Part shown: positions 53,291-64,000 of the stretch, piece after piece
Numbering within the stretch: position 1 is the stretch's first letter
Layout: each line of letters starts with the position of its first letter
NCBI GenBank assembly: GCA_964244175.1
Contig: CAXTHY010000009.1
Location: 29-64,028 of the forward strand
Direction: 5' to 3'
From: an uncultured Jatrophihabitans sp.
GTDB lineage: Bacteria > Actinomycetota > Actinomycetes > Mycobacteriales > Jatrophihabitantaceae
DNA length: 64,000 bases
Notes under the pieces: generated by a model
Databases searched by the model: none
What the model saw: only the letters and a program-made list of their open reading frames with translations
Told to the model about the DNA's origin: nothing
Position numbers and translations under genes: made by a program

Positions 53291-55288
53291 TCAGCTCAGC
53301 GAGACCGTGACGTCGTCGAGATAGAAGGCGGTGGCGCGCGAACTGTCCTCCCGGCCCGTCCAGCTGATCGTGATCTTCTTGCCCGCGTAGCGCGTGGCGT
53401 CCAGCGTCCGCAGCACGTAGTGCTTGGTGCTGAGGTTGCTGTACGCCTGCCGCGTTGCGCCGTTCACGGCGACCGTCAACTTGTCGTGCGCGGTCTTCGT
53501 CTTGTCGGCACTGCTCACCCGCAGGTAGTAGCGGACGATGGCCTTGCAGCCGGCCGGGATGGTCACCGTCCGCGCGACCCGGTCGGTGTGCGTCCGGCCG
53601 TAGCCGTCCAGTCGGACGTAGTGGGTGCCGCGGTGCGCGAGGCTCGAGTGGTAGACCCGGTTCGACGACATCGCCCAGCCGGCGCGGCCGGACTCGAAGC
53701 CAGGGTTGGTGAGCGTGAGCGAGCACGACGCCGCGATCGTCCAGGTGAACGTCATGCTGTTGGTCGCGCCGGTCGCGTCGGCGGCGGTCACCGAGACCGT
53801 GCGGCGGCTCGTCGTGATCGGCGTGCCCTTGATCAGACCGGACGATGCGTTGATCGACAACCCGGCCGGCAAACCGGTGGCCTGGAAGGTCAGCGCCTGA
53901 GCACCGGAATCGTGGGCCTTGATCTGTAGTCTCGTCGCCCGCCCGACATTCCCGCTGCGAGTGCCCGGGTTCGTCATCGACACCGCATTCGCCCGGGCGT
54001 CGTCGCTGGTGAAGCCGTCGACACCGTTGGGCGTGCCGAGGCCGGTCGGGCCGTCCCATCCGGTGCCGGCATGGCACAGGGCCGCCTGCGCGCAGCTACC
54101 GTTCGAGCCGCTGGTGACATCGTTGAGGTGCGCACGGTCGACGTAGGGCGACGCGCCGGGGTGACTGCCCGCACTCGGGGTGCCGGCCAGGGCGTAGGTG
54201 GCGGCGATGATCGGCGCACTCGCGCTCGTGCCGCCGAAGACCGACCAGCCGCCGGCGGAGCCTTGGTTGTAGGTGAAGTAGACGGCCACGCCGGTGGCCG
54301 GGTCGGCCACGGCCGACACGTCGGCCGTGGCGCGCTGGGCGCAGGTCGAGGTGGCGATGACACTTTGCCAGGCCGGCTTGGCCTCCGAATCCGAACAGCC
54401 GGATCCGGTGCCGCCGTTGTCGTTGTTCCAGACCGATTCGCTCCACTTGCGCGCGGTGGACACAGCGCGGGTGAGATGGGTACCGCCGACCGCGACGACG
54501 CTGGGCGAGCTCGCCGGGTAGGACACGCCGGCGTCGTAGGCGTTGTCGCCGGTCGCGGCGGCGTAGACGACGCCGGTCGGCGCGAAGTAGCGCTTGTCGT
54601 AGGCGGGCTCGGTCCCGTCCTCGGGGCCGCCCCAACTGAGTGAGACGAACCTGGCGCCGAGCGTGTTGGCTTGCTGCACGGCTGTGAACAGGTTCTCGCC
54701 GTCGTCATCGGCCTCGACGAGGGTGATCTTGCAGAGCGGGCAGACGGCCGACACCATCTCGAGGTCGAGTGCGATCTCGGCGGCCCAGCCGTCGTCGGGC
54801 GCAGGGTAGGGGCCGGCCGCGCCCCTCTGGTTCAGCTTGCGAAAGCAGAGGTTGCTTGTGGTGCACGCCGGCAGTCCGTACTTGGCCCGGTAGACCGCGA
54901 GGTCGGCTTCGGCGTTCGGGTTGTCATAGGCGTCGACCACGTAGACGGTCTGGTCGCTGCCCTTAGTGGCCGCGGCTTGGGCGAGCGCGTAGGCCGACTG
55001 CAGGTCCGCTGGCCCGTAACCGCTGAAGGCGGTACTCGCCGCGGCGGCTTTCAGTTGGCGCCGGGCCGTGGAGGGGGGGTCGACCCGTCGCTGCGCGAAG
55101 CAGGAATAGTGCCCGGGCGCCGGCGTCTGGTCGCAGGCGTCGGCCACCTTCGCCGGAGCAGAAGTTGGAGCGGCAGCGGCCGGAGCGGCAGCGGCAGCGG
55201 CCGGCACCGCGGCGACACCGGCGGCGAGCGCGCACGTCGCGAGCACCGCACTCATCGCGCGGAGCGAGCGGGACGTGATCGCAGGCAT
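53291..55288 (-). CDS. Secreted S53 (sedolisin-like) serine peptidase with an Ig-like domain and a C-terminal beta-rich domain
   Basis: Signal peptide (MSAVLATCALAAGVAAVPA). WAAEIALDLEMV (Glu/Asp region) and GGTSASAPIIAATYAL (Ser motif). Then LTFQATGLPAGLSINASSGLIKGTP (He_PIG/Ig-like) and a C-terminal domain of about 150 aa. Confidence 0.75.
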   Translation of the reverse strand: MPAITSRSLRAMSAVLATCALAAGVAAVPAAAAAAPAAAAPTSAPAKVADACDQTPAPGHYSCFAQRRVDPPSTARRQLKAAAASTAFSGYGPADLQSAYALAQAAATKGSDQTVYVVDAYDNPNAEADLAVYRAKYGLPACTTSNLCFRKLNQRGAAGPYPAPDDGWAAEIALDLEMVSAVCPLCKITLVEADDDGENLFTAVQQANTLGARFVSLSWGGPEDGTEPAYDKRYFAPTGVVYAAATGDNAYDAGVSYPASSPSVVAVGGTHLTRAVSTARKWSESVWNNDNGGTGSGCSDSEAKPAWQSVIATSTCAQRATADVSAVADPATGVAVYFTYNQGSAGGWSVFGGTSASAPIIAATYALAGTPSAGSHPGASPYVDRAHLNDVTSGSNGSCAQAALCHAGTGWDGPTGLGTPNGVDGFTSDDARANAVSMTNPGTRSGNVGRATRLQIKAHDSGAQALTFQATGLPAGLSINASSGLIKGTPITTSRRTVSVTAADATGATNSMTFTWTIAASCSLTLTNPGFESGRAGWAMSSNRVYHSSLAHRGTHYVRLDGYGRTHTDRVARTVTIPAGCKAIVRYYLRVSSADKTKTAHDKLTVAVNGATRQAYSNLSTKHYVLRTLDATRYAGKKITISWTGREDSSRATAFYLDDVTVSLS

Positions 55289-55761: not shown

Positions 55762-58026
55762 ATGAGGCTCATCTTCTGGCGGGTCTATCTTGCCGCCGGG
55801 ATCGCCATCGTGGGCGGCTATCTATTCGTCCCCGACGGCGTGCCGCAGGACCTCGTCTACGCCCTACTCGGCGGGTCCAGCCTTGCCGCCATCGCCGTCG
55901 GGATCAGGCTGCACAACCCGGCCCGTCAGCTCCCGTGGTGGCTGATGTTCGCCGGCCTGCTGCTCTGGGTGGCCGGCGACGCGCTCAGCAGCTGGTACGA
56001 GGACATCGCCCACGACGCCGCCTACCCGTCATGGGCCGACGCGTGCTATCTCGCCGCCTACCCCGTGATCGCCGCCGGCCTGCTGATCCTGATCCGCGGG
56101 CGGCTGCCGCGTCGCGACATCGCCGGCCTGCTCGACAGCGCCACGGTAACCGCTGGGCTCGGCCTGCTGTCGTGGGTACTGATCGCCCGGCCCACCCTGA
56201 GCGCGTCGGAACACACCCCGGCCGCAGCCATCGTCGGCGTCGCGTACCCGATGGCCGACATCCTGCTGGCCAGCATGCTGATCCGGCTCGTCACCACACC
56301 AGGTGGGCGCACGCCGGCGTTTCGCTGGCTGTTCGGTGCGGTATCTCTGCTGATCGCGGGCGACACGCTCTCGGCTGCCCTCAGTCTGTGGTCGACATCA
56401 TCGACGTCGGCCTTCGAACTCATCTGGCTCGCGTCCTACGTCGCCTGGGGCACCGCCGCTCTGCATCCCTCGATGGCCCGGCTGTCCGACCGCTCTCATG
56501 GCAACGGGGTCGACTTCTCCCGCTGGCGGCTGGCGGCGCTCGGTGTCGCGATCCTTATCGCCCCCGGCACGCTGGCAGTGCAATCGCTGGCCCATGTCAC
56601 GATCGACGTCTGGGCGGTCGTCACCGGATCGGTGGTCCTTTTCCTCCTTGTCGTCGCGCGGATGCACATCGGGATCAGACAGGTCGTCACGGCCAACCGG
56701 GAACGGGCGCGGGCGCAGCACGATCTCGTCTACCAAGCTGCGCACGACGCGCTGACCGGTCTGCCCAACCGGGCCGACGCGCTGCACCAGATCGAGGCGG
56801 CCCTGAGCCGCGCGCAGCGGACCGGCGGCCTGCTCGGGCTGCTGTTCGTCGACCTCGACGGGTTCAAGAGCGTCAACGACAGCTTCGGTCACCGCGGTGG
56901 CGACGAAGTGCTCCGGGTCGTCGGCGGCCGCCTCAGTGACCTGGTGCGCGGCGGCGATCTGGTCGCGCGCCTCGGCGGCGACGAATTCGTCGTACTGCTC
57001 GAGTGCCTCGACTCCGAAACGACCGCGCTGCACGTGGCACTGCGCCTCATCGAAACGATCTCGGCCCCGATCCGCCTCCCCCTGGCCGGCGACCACGTTG
57101 TGAGCGTCGGTGCCAGCGTCGGCATAGCGATCAGCGTGGACGGCTCCACAGACGCCGGTCGGTTCCTGCACGAGGCCGACACCGCCGTCTACCGCGCGAA
57201 GAAGGCGGGCCGGGGCCGGGTCGAGATCTTCGACGACGTGCTGCGCCACGAGCTGGCCGAAAGGGCCGAACTCGAGGCCGCACTGCGGGTCGCGATCGAA
57301 CAAGAGCAGCTGATGGTGCAGTACCAGCCGATCGTCGAACTCGCGACCGGAGGGGTCAGTGGGTACGAGGCGCTGGTGCGCTGGCAGCGTCCGCTTCAGG
57401 GGCTGCTACCGCCGTCCGCGTTCATTCCCACTGCCGAAGCGTCGAACCTTGTCTGCGACCTGGACGCGTGGGTGCTGCGTCACGCCACGGCCCAGCTCGC
57501 GCGGTGGACCGAATCGGGCGGGCCCCGGCGAACGGTGGCGGTCAACATCTCCGGACGGCACATCGGTGAGCCGCGCGTCGTCGACGACGTCCGCGCCGCC
57601 CTGGCCGAGTCTGGGTTGGACGCGCGCCAGCTCGTCCTCGAGATCACCGAAACGGTACTGACCGAGGACATGCGGGCCGTGGACCACCTGCAGCAGTTGC
57701 GGGCACTGGGCGTGGCGATCAGCATCGACGATTTCGGCACCGGCTACAGCTCGATCGCGCGGTTGCAGCACCTGCCCGTCGACGTGATCAAGATCGACCA
57801 CAGCTTCCTCGACCAGCAGCCGTCCTCGCGCGCGCTGCTCGAACTGATGGTGCACGCCGCCCATGCCTTCGGCCTGCCCGTCGTCGCGGAAGGCGTCGAG
57901 ACCGTCGAGCAGCTCGAGATGGTGCGGGCGATGAGCTGCGAGTTCATCCAGGGCTTCCACGTGGCCCGCCCCCTGACGGCCGAGCAGATCGGTCGCCTCG
58001 ACCTCAACTTCGCCGCGGCGTCGTGA
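55762..58026 (+). CDS. Membrane-anchored GGDEF-EAL protein (diguanylate cyclase/phosphodiesterase)
   Basis: About 300-aa multi-TM N-terminus. GGDEF domain (GHRGGDEVL, RLGGDEFVVLL). EAL domain (YEALVRW, DDFGTGYSS, KIDHSF). Confidence 0.9.
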   Translation: MRLIFWRVYLAAGIAIVGGYLFVPDGVPQDLVYALLGGSSLAAIAVGIRLHNPARQLPWWLMFAGLLLWVAGDALSSWYEDIAHDAAYPSWADACYLAAYPVIAAGLLILIRGRLPRRDIAGLLDSATVTAGLGLLSWVLIARPTLSASEHTPAAAIVGVAYPMADILLASMLIRLVTTPGGRTPAFRWLFGAVSLLIAGDTLSAALSLWSTSSTSAFELIWLASYVAWGTAALHPSMARLSDRSHGNGVDFSRWRLAALGVAILIAPGTLAVQSLAHVTIDVWAVVTGSVVLFLLVVARMHIGIRQVVTANRERARAQHDLVYQAAHDALTGLPNRADALHQIEAALSRAQRTGGLLGLLFVDLDGFKSVNDSFGHRGGDEVLRVVGGRLSDLVRGGDLVARLGGDEFVVLLECLDSETTALHVALRLIETISAPIRLPLAGDHVVSVGASVGIAISVDGSTDAGRFLHEADTAVYRAKKAGRGRVEIFDDVLRHELAERAELEAALRVAIEQEQLMVQYQPIVELATGGVSGYEALVRWQRPLQGLLPPSAFIPTAEASNLVCDLDAWVLRHATAQLARWTESGGPRRTVAVNISGRHIGEPRVVDDVRAALAESGLDARQLVLEITETVLTEDMRAVDHLQQLRALGVAISIDDFGTGYSSIARLQHLPVDVIKIDHSFLDQQPSSRALLELMVHAAHAFGLPVVAEGVETVEQLEMVRAMSCEFIQGFHVARPLTAEQIGRLDLNFAAAS

Positions 58027-58068
58027 CCGCGCCGAGCCGGTAGGTTCGCTGGTCGTGAGGAGCGATCG

Positions 58069-60456
58069 ATGACCGAATCGGGGGGCGCCGCGGCCAGCAG
58101 CGCCGTCGCCGATCGGTTGACCGCGTTGCAGGCACGCATCGGCCTCGGTATCACCGATGCGGCGACCAGTGACGCGCTGCGCGGGTTGCTCACCGACATC
58201 GCCGCGGCGCAGGGGACAAGCCCGGCCAGCGCGCCTGACCTGCAGTGGTGGGCTGCCGCGACCCGCGATGCCCTCGCCCTGACGCTCGTCCACCGTGGCG
58301 ACGCGTCCGGGGCGGCGAGGGAGTACCGGCAGGCGGCCGCTGTCTGGACTCAGCTGGGCGAGGACGCGCGCGGCGGTGAGTCCGCAGCTGCCGCGGTCAC
58401 CCAGGCGGTGGCGGCCGGGGGTGCCCTGGACGGCGTGATCACCGATCTCGTCGCCGACCTCGGCGCTGCGCAGGGGCTGCCGCGGGCCGCGCTGTTGGTC
58501 CGGCTCGCTCGGTTGGCCGCCGACGTCGGAGACCACTTCGAGGCCCGGCGCCGCGCCGAAGAGGCCGCACAACTCCTCGTCGGGCTCGGGTACCTGGATC
58601 CGAGCTCCGATCCGGCCGGCGCGTTCGCGACGTGGCTGCCGCCGTCGGCCGACGCGAGGGACGTCGCGACCCTGCGCAAGGTCACCACGGTGCTCACCAC
58701 GTGGGGCGCGCTGCTCGGGGTCCGCGGGGCGATCGGCGACGGCTGGGCCACCGCCGCCCTGCAGGCCCTGCCCGAGCTCAGCCGCCGGCTGATGGCCCAG
58801 GCCGGGATGCCGGCCGACGAGACGGCGCAGCGGGTGCTCCGGTTGTCGGCGCGCCTCGACCAGCTGCAGGACGCGTACGACAACAGCCCCGACACGCCCG
58901 ATCCCGCGACGTGGCAACGGTTGTACGACGCGACGCGTGCCGTCGTCACCGAGGCCGCCGAACTCGATCAGCCGACGGTGGCGGCCATGGCCCACATCCT
59001 GGAGTCGGACCTGCTGACCTGGGCCGGGCGCCCCGCCGACGCGTCGACCGTGCTGGCCACGGCCCGCGTCGAACTGCGCGCGGCACAATCAGCGCCCGAG
59101 GCCATACGCAGCGCGCTGGTGGTGCAGCTGATCCGTCGCCAGGTCGAGATCGCCGCGGCCACGCCGGACTCGGCCGCGGTCTCGCGCTTCGCCGGCGAGG
59201 GCATCGACGCGATCGAGGCCGACCGGCGGCGGCTCAACCTGCCCTACCTGCAGGACAGCTATCTGCGCGACCGGCGCCTGATCTACGTCGCCGGGATGGC
59301 CGCCGCCCGTCGCCTGGACGACCTCGACCTGCTGCTCGAGCGCGCCGACCTCGTGAAGGCCCGCGGGTCGGTGGCCTGGCTGCGTGAGGCACCCGCGCCG
59401 ATCGGGGCGATCCGGGCCTCGCTCGGGCCCGACGAGGTCGTGGTCTACCACCTGTGGGCCGACCGCACCGTGCTCTACGTGCTGAGCGTCGACCGCGACG
59501 AGATCGTCTGCGACCGCAAGCTGCTCACCGAGGGGCAACGGGCTGAGCTGGACTCGCTCGTCGCCGACTTCGCCGGACTGCGCAGCGAGGCGACCTGGCC
59601 GGATCGCGCCATCCCACCGCTCGGCGATCTGCTGTTGCCAACCGACGGTGCCCGCCTGCTGAGCGGCAAGACGCGGCTGATCGTCTCGCCCAACGGCCTG
59701 CTGCACCAGGTGCCGATGCATGCGCTGCGCTGGCAGGGCGGGCCGCTCGTCGAGTCGTTTGCCATCAGCTACGTCCCCAACTTCGCCGCCCTCACCCGGC
59801 GGCCGGCGCGCCCGGCCGCCGGGTCTGCGCTCGTCGTCGGCATCGGGGCGTTCCCGAACGCCCGGACGCTGCGCACGGCCGAGCAGGAGGCCACGGCGGT
59901 CGCCGCCCGCTACCCGCAGGCCGACCTGCTGCTCGGGCCGCAGGCCGACCGGGCCGCACTGGCCGCGCGCGTCGCCGATGGTCGGCTGGGCGGCGTCCCC
60001 ATGATCCATCTCGCCACCCACGGGCAGGACGGCCCGCTCGACGATCCCCTGGCCGCCCGGTTCCTGCTGGCCGACGGCGACGTCGAGGGCACGGCCATGG
60101 CCGGATGGCAGCTGGCGGCCGATCTCGTGGTGCTCTCGGCCTGCTGGTCGGCGCAGCGCGCGGTGCTCGGCCGCGACGGCAGCGAACTGTTCGGCGACGA
60201 GGTGTACGGCCTGCAGTCGGCGTTCTTCGCCGCCGGCGCGCGGCAGGTGCTCGGCGCGATGTGGCCGGCCCGTGACGCGGTCACCACCGCGCTCATGACC
60301 CGCTTCCACGGCCTGCTGACCACGGGGACGCCGGCCGACGTCGCCCTGCAGACCGCGATGATCGAAGCCTGGCGCGCTGACGGGTTGCTTTACCACTGGG
60401 CGCCCTACAAGCTGACCTTTCTCGGCCGCCCGCCCCAGAACATGGAGAATTCATGA
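58069..60456 (+). CDS. TPR-like/alpha-helical repeat protein with a C-terminal CHAT (caspase-fold protease) domain
   Basis: 795 aa. C-terminal region has MIHLATHGQ (His) and DLVVLSACWSA (Cys), followed by YGLQSAFFAAGARQVLGAMW, as in CHAT domains. GAGGAG RBS. Confidence 0.8.
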   Translation: MTESGGAAASSAVADRLTALQARIGLGITDAATSDALRGLLTDIAAAQGTSPASAPDLQWWAAATRDALALTLVHRGDASGAAREYRQAAAVWTQLGEDARGGESAAAAVTQAVAAGGALDGVITDLVADLGAAQGLPRAALLVRLARLAADVGDHFEARRRAEEAAQLLVGLGYLDPSSDPAGAFATWLPPSADARDVATLRKVTTVLTTWGALLGVRGAIGDGWATAALQALPELSRRLMAQAGMPADETAQRVLRLSARLDQLQDAYDNSPDTPDPATWQRLYDATRAVVTEAAELDQPTVAAMAHILESDLLTWAGRPADASTVLATARVELRAAQSAPEAIRSALVVQLIRRQVEIAAATPDSAAVSRFAGEGIDAIEADRRRLNLPYLQDSYLRDRRLIYVAGMAAARRLDDLDLLLERADLVKARGSVAWLREAPAPIGAIRASLGPDEVVVYHLWADRTVLYVLSVDRDEIVCDRKLLTEGQRAELDSLVADFAGLRSEATWPDRAIPPLGDLLLPTDGARLLSGKTRLIVSPNGLLHQVPMHALRWQGGPLVESFAISYVPNFAALTRRPARPAAGSALVVGIGAFPNARTLRTAEQEATAVAARYPQADLLLGPQADRAALAARVADGRLGGVPMIHLATHGQDGPLDDPLAARFLLADGDVEGTAMAGWQLAADLVVLSACWSAQRAVLGRDGSELFGDEVYGLQSAFFAAGARQVLGAMWPARDAVTTALMTRFHGLLTTGTPADVALQTAMIEAWRADGLLYHWAPYKLTFLGRPPQNMENS

Positions 60457-60806
60457 CCGCCTCGTCCGACGCGTCCGCCCCCATCTCGCTCGCGCTGCAC
60501 ATCGAGGGTGATGCTGCCGACGTCGGCGCGCTGCTGGCCGAGGTGCCCGAGGTCGCCACCGTCGATCATGTCTCGACGTCGGACAACCGTGACCTCGCCA
60601 CGATCGCCACCACGCTGGTCACCCTGACGACGATCGCGGCCAACGCGTCGATGCTGATCGCCACCGTCGACAAGGTGATCGACCAGCTCAAGGCCATCGC
60701 GAAGAAGCGGGGCTGGAAGATCTCGGTCGAGGTCGGCCGCAAGAACGTCGACGTCCACAGCGTCACGGCCGAGCAGAAGGAAACGCTGGCCCAGCCCGCC
60801 TCGTAG
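60453..60806 (+). CDS. Small (117 aa) partner protein of the CHAT gene, EACC1-like layout
   Basis: ATGA overlap with the CHAT stop. N-terminal strand plus acidic segment, a Thr/Ala/Ile-rich hydrophobic stretch (LATIATTLVTLTTIAANASMLIATV), and a basic beta-like tail (KKRGWKISVEVGRKNVDVHSV). Confidence 0.6.
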   Translation: MTASSDASAPISLALHIEGDAADVGALLAEVPEVATVDHVSTSDNRDLATIATTLVTLTTIAANASMLIATVDKVIDQLKAIAKKRGWKISVEVGRKNVDVHSVTAEQKETLAQPAS

Positions 60807-60840: not shown

Positions 60841-61371
60841 GTGACCATCGACAGTGAGACCAGCAGCGCGTGGTTGACCCGCGAAGAGCTCGACAACGCG
60901 CGCGAACGGTTGCCGATCCTCTACATCGACGCCATCCCGGTGCGCGTTGATCAGACCGGTGAGGTGACGTCGGTCGGCCTGCTGCTGCGTGCCACCGGGC
61001 ACGGCGGGATCAGCCGGGCGCTGGTGTCCGGCCGCGTCCTCTACGGCGAGCGGGTCCGGCAGGCCCTGCTGCGGCACCTCGAGAAGGACCTCGGGCCGCT
61101 GGCACTGCCCCGCGTCCCGCCCTCGCCGCAGCCGTTCACGGTGGCCGAGTACTTCCCCGTCCCGGGGGTGACGCCGTTTCACGACCCGCGCCAGCACGCG
61201 GTCTCGCTCGCCTATGTCATCCCGGTCGAGGGCGACTGCGCACCCCAGCAGGACGCGCTCGAGCTGGCCTGGATGACGCCGGCCCAGGCCCGCGACGAGC
61301 GCATGCTGGCCGAGATGCACGGTGGTCAAGGAGTGCTGCTGCAGCAGGGTCTCGCGCACATCGGCTGCTGA
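60841..61371 (+). CDS. NUDIX-fold-like protein with a degenerate NUDIX box (possibly the DUF4916 family)
   Basis: GTG 60841. GRVLYGERVRQALLRHLEKDLG fits Gx5Ex7R-U-x-G spacing, but the catalytic REUxEE glutamates are replaced (RHLEKD). Confidence 0.55.
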   Translation: MTIDSETSSAWLTREELDNARERLPILYIDAIPVRVDQTGEVTSVGLLLRATGHGGISRALVSGRVLYGERVRQALLRHLEKDLGPLALPRVPPSPQPFTVAEYFPVPGVTPFHDPRQHAVSLAYVIPVEGDCAPQQDALELAWMTPAQARDERMLAEMHGGQGVLLQQGLAHIGC

Positions 61372-61377
61372 CTCCAG

Positions 61378-63234
61378 TCAGGTCGCCGCCGGTGCCGTCC
61401 ACTCCTGCGCCGGCAATACCTGGGCCAGGTTCTCCATCCGGCGCTGCACCGCGGCCACCTCGCGCACGGCCTGCGCCACCACGCTGCGGTCGATGGGTGA
61501 GAGCAGCTGCATCGTGACCACGTCAGACGGCCGGTGGCCGCGCTGGTGGGCCCGCAGCTGGTAGCGCAGCCGCAAGCGCTGCAGCACCTCGAACACCTCG
61601 ATCAGCGTTGTGGCCTGCTCGTCCGGCAGCATCGTCGACCCGGCCGCCGCTTGCAGCCGGGCGGTGGTCGCAAGCTCCGACGCGCCGACGCTCAGGGCCG
61701 CCCACCGCGCGATGTTGATGATGGGGACGAGGGCGTGGGCTTTCATGTCGAACGTCCCGCCCCGGCGGGCCAGCACGTCGCGGACCGAACGCAGCTTGGC
61801 CCGGTGCGACAGCGATTCGTGCAGCAGGAGCCGCATGGTGCCGGGATGCCGGCGTAGCTCGGCGAACACCTTCGACACGACCGGCAACCCGGGGTCGCCG
61901 TGGATGGGGCGGCCGTCGACGAGCAACGACGTCATGATCGCGCCCTTGTTGTCGGCCGGCGCGGCGAGCCAGTCCTGCGCGGCCGCGCGCCACTGCGTGT
62001 CGGTGCGGGCGAACAACCGATGGGCGGCCGTCGCACCGTGCTCATCGACGCCGACACCGGCCGCCTCGAGGATCTCGTTGACCTCAGCGAAGGCGGCGCG
62101 GTAGCGGTCCTGGTCGGCCGCAGTGATGGAGGCGTGGAAGGCGACGGCCGAGTCGACGTCGGAACTGGGCACCGCCTCCCGCCGGCCGTTGCTGCCCAGC
62201 GACAGCCAGGTGAAGGCGTCGATGTTCAGCTCGGGATGCCGCTCGAAGGTCAGCACGAGCGCGCGGCGCACCATCGTGTCGATGGTGGCCGAGTACACCG
62301 CGATCACCTTGTTGGTGGCCAGGCCGCGGTCGAGCAGGTCGTCGAGCATCGCCGGCGCCCGCCGCCCGCGCTGGACGAGGTCCTCGACGCTGCCCGCTCG
62401 GGCGAGCTGCTGGCGCAGCGCGACCCCGGCCGTCGCCGTCGACACCACGAAGTCGGTGGGGGCCACCGCGCCGCGCAACCGGCCGGCGCGGTCGACCACC
62501 AACAAGAAGTCGGCCTGCTGGTCCAGCAGCGTGATCAGCGCTTCGGCCGCCGACTCGCCCACCGTGGTCGTCGGGGCCGGCGAGTCGACCAGCTTCCCGA
62601 CCGGATCGCTCGGCGGCGTCGCCCCGACGATGACCCGCTCACGCAGCAACGCGTCGGTGATCAGGCCGTACCGCCGCTTCCCGAGATCGACGGCGGCGTA
62701 GGCCACGCCGTGTTCGCCCATGCGCCGCGCGACCTCGCTGATCGGGGTCCGCGGGCCGACGATGACCGGTTCGCGGACGATCAGCTCGTCGACGACCCCG
62801 TAGGAGGGGAACGCCGCGGACCGCGGGGGCGATTGCGATAGGTGCTCGGCCAGGAAGCGCGCCCCGGACGCGGACGAGAACGCCGGCTTGACCGCCGACG
62901 AGGGGATGCGCGCCAGCGTCGTGTCCTGCGTCGCGACCACCCGGGGGCCGACGGAGCGTTGCGTGAGCATTGCTGAGTAGCCGAACACCCCGCCCGGGCC
63001 GAGGGCCTCCTCCGGTTCGTCGGCGCTTGATTCGACGCTGCCCCACAGCTCGACCGCGCCGCTCACCACGACGAACAGCTCGCGGATCGGCTCGACGAAC
63101 GCGTCGATCACCTTTGCCCCGGGGCGGACGCGCTCAATTCGTGCGGCGTCGGCCACCTTGCGCAACGCCGCGTCATCCAGCCCGTCGAAAGGCGCGTGCT
63201 CCGAGAGGAAGCGGGCGAGATCGTCGGCCTGCAC
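61378..63234 (-). CDS. cNMP-binding / tandem CBS / DUF294-type nucleotidyltransferase signal-transduction protein
   Basis: 618 aa from GTG 63234. N-terminal cNMP-binding-like domain (GGVFGYSAML). CBS pair. Pol-beta-type NTase motif LSLGSNGRREAVPSSDVDSAV. C-terminal substrate-binding helical domain. Confidence 0.8.
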   Translation of the reverse strand: MQADDLARFLSEHAPFDGLDDAALRKVADAARIERVRPGAKVIDAFVEPIRELFVVVSGAVELWGSVESSADEPEEALGPGGVFGYSAMLTQRSVGPRVVATQDTTLARIPSSAVKPAFSSASGARFLAEHLSQSPPRSAAFPSYGVVDELIVREPVIVGPRTPISEVARRMGEHGVAYAAVDLGKRRYGLITDALLRERVIVGATPPSDPVGKLVDSPAPTTTVGESAAEALITLLDQQADFLLVVDRAGRLRGAVAPTDFVVSTATAGVALRQQLARAGSVEDLVQRGRRAPAMLDDLLDRGLATNKVIAVYSATIDTMVRRALVLTFERHPELNIDAFTWLSLGSNGRREAVPSSDVDSAVAFHASITAADQDRYRAAFAEVNEILEAAGVGVDEHGATAAHRLFARTDTQWRAAAQDWLAAPADNKGAIMTSLLVDGRPIHGDPGLPVVSKVFAELRRHPGTMRLLLHESLSHRAKLRSVRDVLARRGGTFDMKAHALVPIINIARWAALSVGASELATTARLQAAAGSTMLPDEQATTLIEVFEVLQRLRLRYQLRAHQRGHRPSDVVTMQLLSPIDRSVVAQAVREVAAVQRRMENLAQVLPAQEWTAPAAT

Positions 63235-63250
63235 CCGGCCATCGTGCCTG

Positions 63251-64000
63251 TTACGCCAAGACGGTGGCCAGTTCCAGCACGAAGGCGCGCCACGGCCGGT
63301 GCGGCTTTGCACCGTGCCCAGGATCGACGCCGACGATGCGGGCGTCACTGAGGGTGACGGTGGTGTGCGCCGCGTCCGGGTCGAGCGTGACCAGCCCGGC
63401 CAGCTCGGCATCGCCGCGCACCCAGCGGCGGCGCCAGTCGACGACGCTCGAGTGGCCGTGCACCTGGCTGAACGGCATCGCGCCCGCCGCCTGCCAGCTC
63501 GGCACGAGCTCGGTCGCGGCGGCCGCCCACAGTGGACCGGCGCTCGCGGTCGGCTCGCTGCGCCCGAGCATCTGCCCGGCGGCGAACAACACGTCCTCGT
63601 GCGTGCCGATGAAGGAGTTGATGGCCTTGGCCGCCAGCGTCGCGGCGGCCGGCGCGTCGAGGGCGCGGCGCCAGTAGCCCTCGGTCAGCCCGGCATGCGT
63701 GACAACGAAGTCCTCGCCGCCGCAGCGGACGGCGGCCGCGGCCCGCATCTGCCCGTTCGACCACCAGCGCCGCAGCGTTTCGGCGGCGACGTCCTCGATG
63801 CGGTGCGGCCACTCGAACGCGGGGTCGCGCAGGTACTGCCCCTCGTGGTTGCCGGCCAACTGCACCCACTGCCCGGACTGCGTGCGGAGGTAGCGGTCGA
63901 CGAGCGCGACGACGCCCTCGGAGTCGGGGCCGCGGTGGACCAGGTCGCCGACCTGGATCACGGTCAGGTCCTCGGGCAGGCGCAGCGTCTGCGGGTCGGC
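63251..64000 (-). CDS. Calcineurin-like metallophosphoesterase (5' end beyond the window)
   Basis: Motifs: GDLVHRGPDS, LAGNHEG, VHGHSS. The frame stays open to base 64000 (ADPQTLRLPEDLTVIQVGD...). It ends 16 nt upstream of the next gene. Confidence 0.8.
   Translation of the reverse strand, partial: ADPQTLRLPEDLTVIQVGDLVHRGPDSEGVVALVDRYLRTQSGQWVQLAGNHEGQYLRDPAFEWPHRIEDVAAETLRRWWSNGQMRAAAAVRCGGEDFVVTHAGLTEGYWRRALDAPAAATLAAKAINSFIGTHEDVLFAAGQMLGRSEPTASAGPLWAAAATELVPSWQAAGAMPFSQVHGHSSVVDWRRRWVRGDAELAGLVTLDPDAAHTTVTLSDARIVGVDPGHGAKPHRPWRAFVLELATVLA

Follow-up and report, generated by a model that had tools for sequence, protein, structure and literature searches.

An uncultured Jatrophihabitans sp. 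(GenBank assembly GCA_964244175.1) carries, at positions 58069 to 60806 of a 64,000-nucleotide stretch of contig CAXTHY010000009.1 that we refer to here as the window, a gene for a TPR-like protein with a C-terminal CHAT domain and, overlapping its end, a gene for a protein of only 117 amino acids (aa). An initial annotation of this sequence had taken the pair for a candidate conflict or programmed-death module whose small partner resembles EACC1. We asked what kind of system the two genes form and what the small protein could do in it. Most likely, the pair is a rare and divergent form of a suicide/defense module already known from bacteria. On balance, and by analogy, we favor a two-gene, translationally coupled protease/pro-toxin module in which the CHAT enzyme would cleave the small protein and free a toxic C-terminal fragment. 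The genes, their coupling, the domain identities, a conserved dyad, the pairing across independent loci, and a remote EACC1 homology via a second small-protein family (sp113) are what the analysis itself shows.

The TPR-like CHAT protease and its coupled partner

The larger gene (58069-60456, plus strand, as are all window features below unless noted) encodes 795 aa and is preceded by a Shine-Dalgarno-like GAGGAG (58057-58062) located 6 nucleotides (nt) before its ATG. Its TGA stop codon (60454-60456) shares bases with the ATG (60453-60455) of the 117-aa open reading frame (ORF) at 60453-60806, so that the ATGA overlap at 60453-60456 could be read from the sequence just as annotated. A GGAG (60444-60447) with a 5-nt spacer stands before this ATGA, and together these form a coupling signal at 60444-60456. 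Codon-position GC content is typical of the genome for both ORFs, with third-position values (GC3) of 0.91 for the CHAT gene and 0.85 for the small gene, in a window of 70.7% GC (actinobacterial DNA). Homologues of both ORFs were found in independent metagenomes.

The C-terminal CHAT assignment was borne out by Pfam (PF12770), which matched aa 532 to 782 (59662-60414), the caspase-fold peptidase domain, with a score of 150.9 bits (cut-off, 24; E = 6.5e-44). Both motifs named in the initial annotation were located. The putative catalytic His motif HLATHG spans aa 647 to 652, with the HLATH codons, including those of His647 and His651, at 60007-60021; we take the His of "HG" to be the catalytic one, as in caspase-fold enzymes generally. 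The putative catalytic Cys692 (codon at 60142-60144) lies in LSACWS (aa 689 to 694). A lack of dyad conservation among homologues had been named as an observation that would speak against the annotation; instead, three alignments, of 11, 31, and 37 homologues, each showed H647 conserved at 90% or more, and C692 reached at least that level in the first two and was invariant in the third. Judged from its sequence, the His/Cys dyad of the CHAT domain is intact.

The N-terminal helical repeats were likewise recovered in the AlphaFold2 model of the CHAT protein (predicted local distance difference test [pLDDT] score, 80.5; predicted template modeling [pTM] score, 0.78). About 22 helices at aa 6 to 451 form a TPR-like alpha-solenoid (aa 1 to 451; 58069-59421), followed by a small beta unit and then the alpha/beta CHAT domain. 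No Pfam TPR match was obtained in the protein at E ≤ 0.1, and TPR proteins such as LGN were among those returned by the fold search. Compared with homologues of ∼950 aa, the helical region is 27 to 29% identical and the CHAT domain 43 to 47%. We infer that the helical region serves as a regulatory or sensor region, and it is the only candidate sensor/regulator within the module. Since neither a signal peptide nor a transmembrane segment is evident, the protein is presumably cytoplasmic.

Foldseek searches of the Protein Data Bank (PDB) returned Csx29 as the best match to the CHAT protein (E = 5.6e-13; template modeling [TM] score, ∼0.46 to 0.52), followed by the CHAT-containing anti-sigma factor DdvA and then by separase as the next-best fold groups. 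The matches indicating a caspase/separase-like fold, to Csx29, DdvA, separase, and SAVED-CHAT proteins, ranged from E = 5.6e-13 to 8e-4. The CHAT domain, the dyad motifs, the helical model, and the matches to Csx29, DdvA, and separase therefore confirm the description of the protein as a TPR-like CHAT protease.

Csx29, the protease of Craspase in type III-E CRISPR-Cas, shares the overall TPR plus CHAT architecture. The target of this caspase-fold protease is Csx30, a specific protein whose gene lies nearby, whereas the partner here is a 117-aa EACC1-like protein. Membership in Csx29 itself was rejected, the NCBIfam Csx29 model scoring 24.4 bits against a cut-off of 300. An association with Craspase was rejected as well: Cas7-11/gRAMP was not noticed among the annotated genes (∼32 to 64 kb), which belong to metabolism or signaling, and, as the initial annotation had it, no CRISPR-like array was found in the 64-kb window. 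DdvA of Myxococcus and separase also combine helical repeats with a CHAT/caspase-fold domain. DdvA differs in carrying an anti-sigma domain and a transmembrane helix, and separase in being eukaryotic and regulated by securin; unlike the protein studied here, neither has an EACC1-like partner.

The small-protein family and its link to EACC1

The small protein had no match among Pfam, NCBIfam, or PADLOC models, the EACC1 model included, and a sequence search of the PDB gave nothing meaningful. A word-indexed search yielded a single relative (P0002; 51% identity), HMMER run exhaustively over 1.84 billion cluster representatives gave nine proteins at E ≤ 1e-3, and a profile search brought the family to 23 clusters. 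No homologue was found on plasmids by tblastn. Apart from fragments and one gene-call fusion, family members are 103 to 156 aa long. Arg46, Asp47, Gly87, Leu112, and Ala113 are near invariant and Val34 and Lys80 invariant; across 22 sequences, the conservation of R46 and of D47 is 90% or higher.

Three database entries matching this family deserve mention. The fusion, P0050 (229 aa, from NCBI), joins a CHAT C terminus to the small protein and is an annotation artifact. P0038 (from JGI) bears the source name "phosphopantetheine adenylyltransferase," which is almost certainly wrong. In P0040, a protein of 5398 aa, five weak stretches match profile positions 35 to 107 (E = 3.1e-4), perhaps because an EACC1-like unit is repeated there or perhaps as an artifact of composition.

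AlphaFold2 predicted a ferredoxin-like layout for the small protein (pLDDT, 75.8; pTM, 0.68), consisting of beta1 (aa 9 to 18), alpha1 (24 to 29), beta2 (34 to 42), a loop (43 to 52), beta3 (53 to 62), alpha2 (65 to 86), a beta4-beta5 hairpin (89 to 100, with strands at 89 to 94 and 97 to 100), and alpha3 (106 to 113). The segments given in the initial annotation are present as described, except that in the model the Thr/Ala/Ile-rich stretch is mostly beta-strand (aa 53 to 62) plus the start of a helix and not a transmembrane helix. Foldseek placed the protein near PII-like proteins (CPII, SbtB), ACT domains, and M20 dimerization domains; these matches were generic and weak (best E = 0.018; TM, 0.4 to 0.55), with none at E ≤ 0.001. 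A viral fold library likewise gave only generic ferredoxin-like matches, and the family showed only weak Pfam and PDB sequence matches to ferredoxin-like families such as HMA and AsnC; the topology is shared with the small protein but generic.

In the definition of Kaur et al. 2020 (PMC7159879), EACC1 is a small protein that has a single conserved, transmembrane-like helix with a central patch of small or Gly residues, short alpha+beta extensions on either side of it, and a gene lying 5' of one that encodes an N-terminal caspase-superfamily peptidase domain and a variable C terminus. The initial annotation called the mechanism of the pair unknown, which for EACC1 is now outdated. A 2025 preprint (Evans et al., 10.1101/2025.11.14.688446) reports that KrAvs12 cleaves KrEACC1, with modeling placing the cut at Asp49, and that the C-terminal fragment is toxic and permeabilizes liposomes, and it describes EACC1 as a protease-activated pore-former; in the model the N-terminal fragment pairs with two C-terminal strands, and the authors propose an autoinhibitory role for it.

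The kinship of the window protein with EACC1 emerged through sp113, a second small-protein family of 113 to 115 aa. Its members are found at L004:13760-14101 and L008:10702-11043 and in eight more metagenomic loci (L094 to L101), directly 3' of CHAT genes related to that of the window (38% identity over the C-terminal 360 aa). For all five distinct sp113 sequences Pfam EACC1 (PF19953) was the top match, and for four of the five the sole match, with E values from 6.5e-4 to 0.011; these matches fall below the gathering score and yet span model positions 2 to 105 of 107. The same model gave 28.2 bits for KrEACC1 (taken from the supplement of 10.1101/2025.11.14.688446), 24.3 for a Streptomyces plasmid homologue, and 22.9 for a Ralstonia megaplasmid homologue. 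These three sequences formed our EACC1 profile, to which hhalign aligned sp113 with 90% probability (E = 1.5e-6, 80 columns). Between sp113 and the window family, the probability was 96% (E = 4.7e-9, 91 columns). Control comparisons reached at most 1.6% with reversed profiles and at most 6.4% with 30 column-shuffled profiles. Given this bridge and its controls, we conclude that the window protein is a remote, transitive member of the EACC1 superfamily. As far as its sequence tells, it falls outside the present definition of Pfam EACC1. The annotated "EACC1-like" partner thus stands by way of sp113, and it does not stand by the Pfam model or by direct profile comparison. A metagenome scan with EACC1 peptide patterns found nothing.

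Compared with the EACC1-caspase system ("System 4" of Kaur et al. 2020; KrEACC1/KrAvs12), the window pair shares an alpha+beta protein of ∼115 aa adjoining a caspase-superfamily cysteine protease, a central hydrophobic segment rich in small residues, a collinear order of secondary-structure elements, and an occurrence common in Actinomycetota. The small-residue patch TTIAANAS and its flanking alpha+beta elements are present in the window protein. A conserved Asp precedes the hydrophobic segment in both: Asp47 aligns with Asp49, the modeled KrEACC1 cleavage site, in the hhalign registers and in a joint MAFFT alignment of the three families, which are collinear. Cleavage there would give fragments of similar size, ∼47 plus 70 aa here versus 5.7 plus 7.1 kDa for KrEACC1.

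The two systems differ in several respects. The protease here is a CHAT enzyme (PF12770), while the single canonical example examined has Peptidase_C14; the small gene lies 3' of the protease gene instead of 5'; and the protease domain is C-terminal, behind a TPR-like region, whereas the canonical partner has an N-terminal caspase domain followed by variable sensor/effector domains such as STAND/Avs. The hydrophobic segment, too, is predicted here as a strand plus helix in a soluble fold. The annotated CHAT plus EACC1-like layout therefore holds as regards adjacency to a caspase-superfamily protease, while order and domain arrangement are inverted relative to the canonical form and the protease is of the CHAT family. 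Two EACC1 pairs showed the canonical order, one on Streptomyces sp. W1SF4 plasmid p1 (L092:4956-6638), where EACC1 is followed by a Peptidase_C14 protein, and one on a Ralstonia solanacearum megaplasmid (L093:2860-4947). The downstream ORF of the latter (541 aa), which has an IS1182 transposase beside it, had no Pfam match and is without annotation in the gene table of PLSDB, a table with known gaps.

Recurrence of the pair in other loci

Genomic context was recovered for the window, L001, L002/L003, L004/L005, L006/L007, L008, L009/L010, and L011. In the window, in L001 to L005, and in L008 to L011, the small gene immediately follows a homologous CHAT gene on its 3' side, and a CHAT gene or CHAT remnant stands directly 5' of the small gene at every family locus with upstream DNA. 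CHAT identity to the window protein is 61 to 70% in L001 to L003 and 33 to 37% over ∼900 aa in L004, L005, and L008 to L011. The overlap or abutment of the two genes is kept in L002, L003, L004, L005, L008, L009, and L010; in L011 they are ∼300 nt apart. The flanking genes are different at each locus carrying the pair.

Decayed versions of the module were also encountered. In L001, the closest relative (L001:1582-4235), the CHAT gene is split into ORFs of 611 and 185 aa and looks decayed, the small ORF is truncated after ∼80 aa, and a HAD gene on the other strand overlaps it. In L006/L007 the CHAT gene is reduced to fragments (L006:9073-10312), only TPR-containing pieces being left upstream of the small gene, and at L095:4766-5342 only ∼60 aa of a CHAT C terminus remain before sp113. 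Assembly errors may account for the decayed modules of L001, L006/L007, and L095.

Two of the metagenomic loci are islands in which the window-type and sp113-type EACC1-like partners occur side by side: L004:1272-14101 with three CHAT genes and L008:405-11043 with two. In L008 an IS4 transposase stands between the second CHAT gene and its sp113 partner. A third conserved gene (∼326 to 334 aa, 52 to 94% identity from locus to locus) accompanies the pair of ∼950-aa CHAT and small protein in at least five metagenomic loci (L009:595-1575, L005:790-1770, L004:6044-6883, L011:495-1154, and, on the minus strand, L008:3869-4858 and L006:10364-10702). Its product has a hydrophobic segment, a TPR-like C terminus, and no firm Pfam match. 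The gene is absent from the window and L001, and it may be an extra component of the system of the ∼950-aa CHAT clade.

The neighbors of the pair in the relatives' loci include CHAT paralogues, IS4/DDE transposases, an integrase, an rve integrase, and a group II intron reverse transcriptase. With several CHAT paralogues per island, mobile-element neighbors, frequent decay, and varied flanks, the relatives show hallmarks of conflict systems. The pair was absent from all 80 of the genome loci with orthologues of the gene immediately downstream in the window, a DUF4916/NUDIX gene, across Actinomycetota. Judged by these 80 loci, among which there is no close relative of the window genome, the pair is thus a sporadic two-gene module and not the lineage-wide housekeeping pair that the initial annotation had held up as the contrary outcome.

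Proposed mechanism, alternatives, and surroundings

In the mechanism that we propose, the alpha-solenoid probably keeps the CHAT enzyme inactive and senses the trigger, so that phage infection or another insult would activate the protease via the helical region. The CHAT domain would then cut the small protein in its exposed beta2-beta3 loop (aa 43 to 52; 60579-60608), the predicted cleavage site, at or next to Arg46-Asp47 (60588-60593); pLDDT falls below 50 at aa 45 to 50. The cut would take away the N-terminal beta-alpha-beta unit (aa 9 to 42; 60477-60578), putatively autoinhibitory by analogy with EACC1. The freed C-terminal fragment of ∼70 aa (aa 48 to 117; 60594-60803) is collinear with the toxic fragment of KrEACC1 and may be the effector part. 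The AlphaFold2 model gives it a strand rich in Thr, Ala, and Ile, a beta-hairpin, and two helices, one long and amphipathic and the other terminal; the fragment may oligomerize through exposed strands. Such an oligomer would damage the membrane and lead to cell death or arrest, that is, to abortive infection or programmed death. Cleavage, its exact site, toxicity, pore formation, and a role in defense are all modeled here on KrEACC1/KrAvs12.

The same logic has been described for gasdermin and Pepco (Trypco), in which a latent small effector is encoded beside the protease that activates it by cutting off an inhibitory piece (10.1101/2025.11.14.688446). The proposed logic is what the window pair would share with them; size and predicted fold differ, and there is no sequence relationship. 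The small protein and 21 relatives had no Pfam match at E ≤ 10 to Trypco1/2 (Pepco), gasdermin, or CATASP, so far as these families are represented in the Pfam set used.

Several points weigh against this reading of the pair as a protease/pro-toxin module. In the window, the pair sits among metabolic genes, has native codon usage, and shows no mobile element near it, and PADLOC gave no match for the pair. The AlphaFold2 model of the small protein is a soluble ferredoxin-like fold in which no clear transmembrane helix is seen; the hydrophobic stretch is only borderline for a transmembrane segment, and in most relatives it is interrupted by Lys or Arg. Pfam EACC1 misses the window protein and 21 relatives even at E ≤ 10. 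Direct hhalign comparison of the family with EACC1 profiles of one to three sequences gave a probability of 0.2 to 1.3%, and a merged profile reached only 15%; the profiles are shallow, with three sequences for EACC1 and five for sp113. Since sp113 has Gly at the position aligned with Asp47, conservation of the predicted cleavage site does not extend to the whole superfamily. Canonical EACC1 systems have another gene order, protease family, and domain order, and the EACC1 mechanism rests on a single preprint.

A bolder extension of the proposal, which we regard as speculative, is that the EACC1 superfamily is much broader than its Pfam model and includes inverted, CHAT-coupled branches. The small protein would then be a soluble ferredoxin/PII-like pro-toxin, and cleavage of its T-loop-like beta2-beta3 segment would unmask a Thr/Val-rich beta-hairpin that forms a beta-type pore, a route different from helical transmembrane insertion. 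The window pair would represent a resident, TPR-triggered death switch in a core metabolic neighborhood that operates without a separate sensor gene.

With gasdermin, Pepco, MBL, and EACC1, protease-activated death effectors are emerging as a common logic in bacterial immunity, and, to judge from this locus and its relatives, TPR-CHAT proteases too may have EACC1-like pro-toxins as partners, in an inverted arrangement. Models of Pfam, NCBIfam, and PADLOC did not detect the small partner in the window or in the relatives, so that this EACC1-class branch is missed, and the sp113 bridging family offers annotators a route for extending the EACC1 model. The minimal pair, a protease with a built-in helical region plus a 117-aa partner, makes a compact test system that could address how CHAT proteases are switched on, what cleavage specificity they have, and how an EACC1-like fragment kills.

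The alternative that best survives, although we consider it unlikely, is that the small protein is a regulatory subunit, either a ferredoxin/PII-like ligand-binding partner or an inhibitory one, that gates the TPR-CHAT protease, while the real substrate, for instance a transcription factor, is encoded elsewhere, as with Csx29/Csx30 or DdvA. The PII-like, ACT, and ferredoxin-like domains returned by the fold search would fit such a subunit, as would the long beta2-beta3 loop, which resembles the T-loop of PII. The CHAT protein has its structural neighbors among regulatory proteases (Csx29, DdvA, and the securin-held separase), and the window lacks a mobile or defense context. Nevertheless, the PII-like matches are as weak as stated above (E of ∼0.02), the profiles link the family to EACC1, for which cleavage-dependent toxicity is reported, and a conserved Arg-Asp in a disordered loop suits a cleavage site at least as well as a ligand loop.

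Still less probable is a role as membrane sensor, the first proposal made for EACC1 (Kaur et al. 2020, PMC7159879). The small protein would lodge in the membrane by its hydrophobic segment and, on sensing a perturbed envelope, switch on the protease, which would process itself or other effectors. It draws on the remote EACC1 relationship and on the central small-residue hydrophobic stretch, whose 19-residue Kyte-Doolittle maximum is 1.60 in the window protein, compared with 1.2 to 1.75 in its relatives and 1.71 to 1.86 in bona fide EACC1. AlphaFold2, however, packs this stretch as a strand within a soluble alpha+beta domain, and where Lys or Arg interrupts it, as in most family members, hydropathy is only 1.2 to 1.5. 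The CHAT protein has no fused effector domain to release, and the KrEACC1 experiments favor the cleaved pro-toxin model.

The genes around the pair suggest another arrangement, a c-di-GMP-linked housekeeping or signaling operon in which a GGDEF-EAL gene, the CHAT pair, and the DUF4916 gene would be cotranscribed and the protease would act in physiology controlled by c-di-GMP (cyclic diguanosine monophosphate) and not in conflict; we regard this as very unlikely. The GGDEF-EAL gene (55762-58026) lies upstream of the CHAT gene and the DUF4916/NUDIX gene (60841-61371) downstream of the small gene. All four genes are on the same strand with gaps of 34 to 42 nt, and no terminator-like site was seen between them; codon usage is native, and the surroundings are metabolic. 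Against this reading, neither a GGDEF-EAL nor a DUF4916 neighbor occurs at any of the homologous-pair loci examined, and the pair is missing from the 80 DUF4916-orthologue loci. The former finding also speaks against the GGDEF-EAL gene as the trigger, as suggested in the initial annotation. In Modestobacter sp. VKM Ac-2982 (L074:6446-8477), a GGDEF-EAL gene stands directly 5' of DUF4916 and the pair is absent. This arrangement hints that the window pair was inserted into an older GGDEF-EAL/DUF4916 adjacency; the orthology of the two GGDEF-EAL genes is uncertain, since they are only 39% identical.

That the pair is an inactive relic, a decaying module without current function, is highly improbable: L001 has its split CHAT and truncated small ORF, L006/L007 have lost the CHAT gene, and the sp113 modules of L008 and L095 are disrupted, but in the window the ORFs, the dyad, R46/D47, the ribosome-binding sites, and the ATGA are all intact and codon bias is strong.

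Whether the pair travels in defense islands had been proposed as a survey; the window itself is not a defense island. Its surroundings are ordinary, with genes for EutB, arginase, a permease, creatininase, oxidoreductases, MarR, and MFS proteins in addition to the GGDEF-EAL, DUF4916/NUDIX, and DUF294 genes. Inspection without a tRNA scan brought to light neither direct repeats flanking the pair nor tRNA-like insertion marks or terminators near it. The nearest orthologues of a neighboring gene belong to Jatrophihabitans and Mycobacteriales metagenome-assembled genomes (77 to 81% aa identity), and no close relative of the window genome was found in the DUF4916 synteny search (best, 81% aa identity).

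The DUF4916/NUDIX gene is highly conserved in Actinomycetota, with more than 570 tblastn-confirmed matches in the genome collection. It adjoins a minus-strand gene (61378-63411) for a protein with cNMP-binding (cyclic nucleotide monophosphate-binding), CBS, and DUF294 nucleotidyltransferase domains, and together with the GGDEF-EAL gene these make for a neighborhood rich in nucleotide signaling. Also on the minus strand, 53291-55288 encodes a secreted protein of 665 aa, which has no Pfam match in its N-terminal two-thirds and carries a He_PIG Ig-like domain. Its Ala-rich signal region contains AAAAAPAAAAP, encoded by short tandem repeats at 55167-55222.

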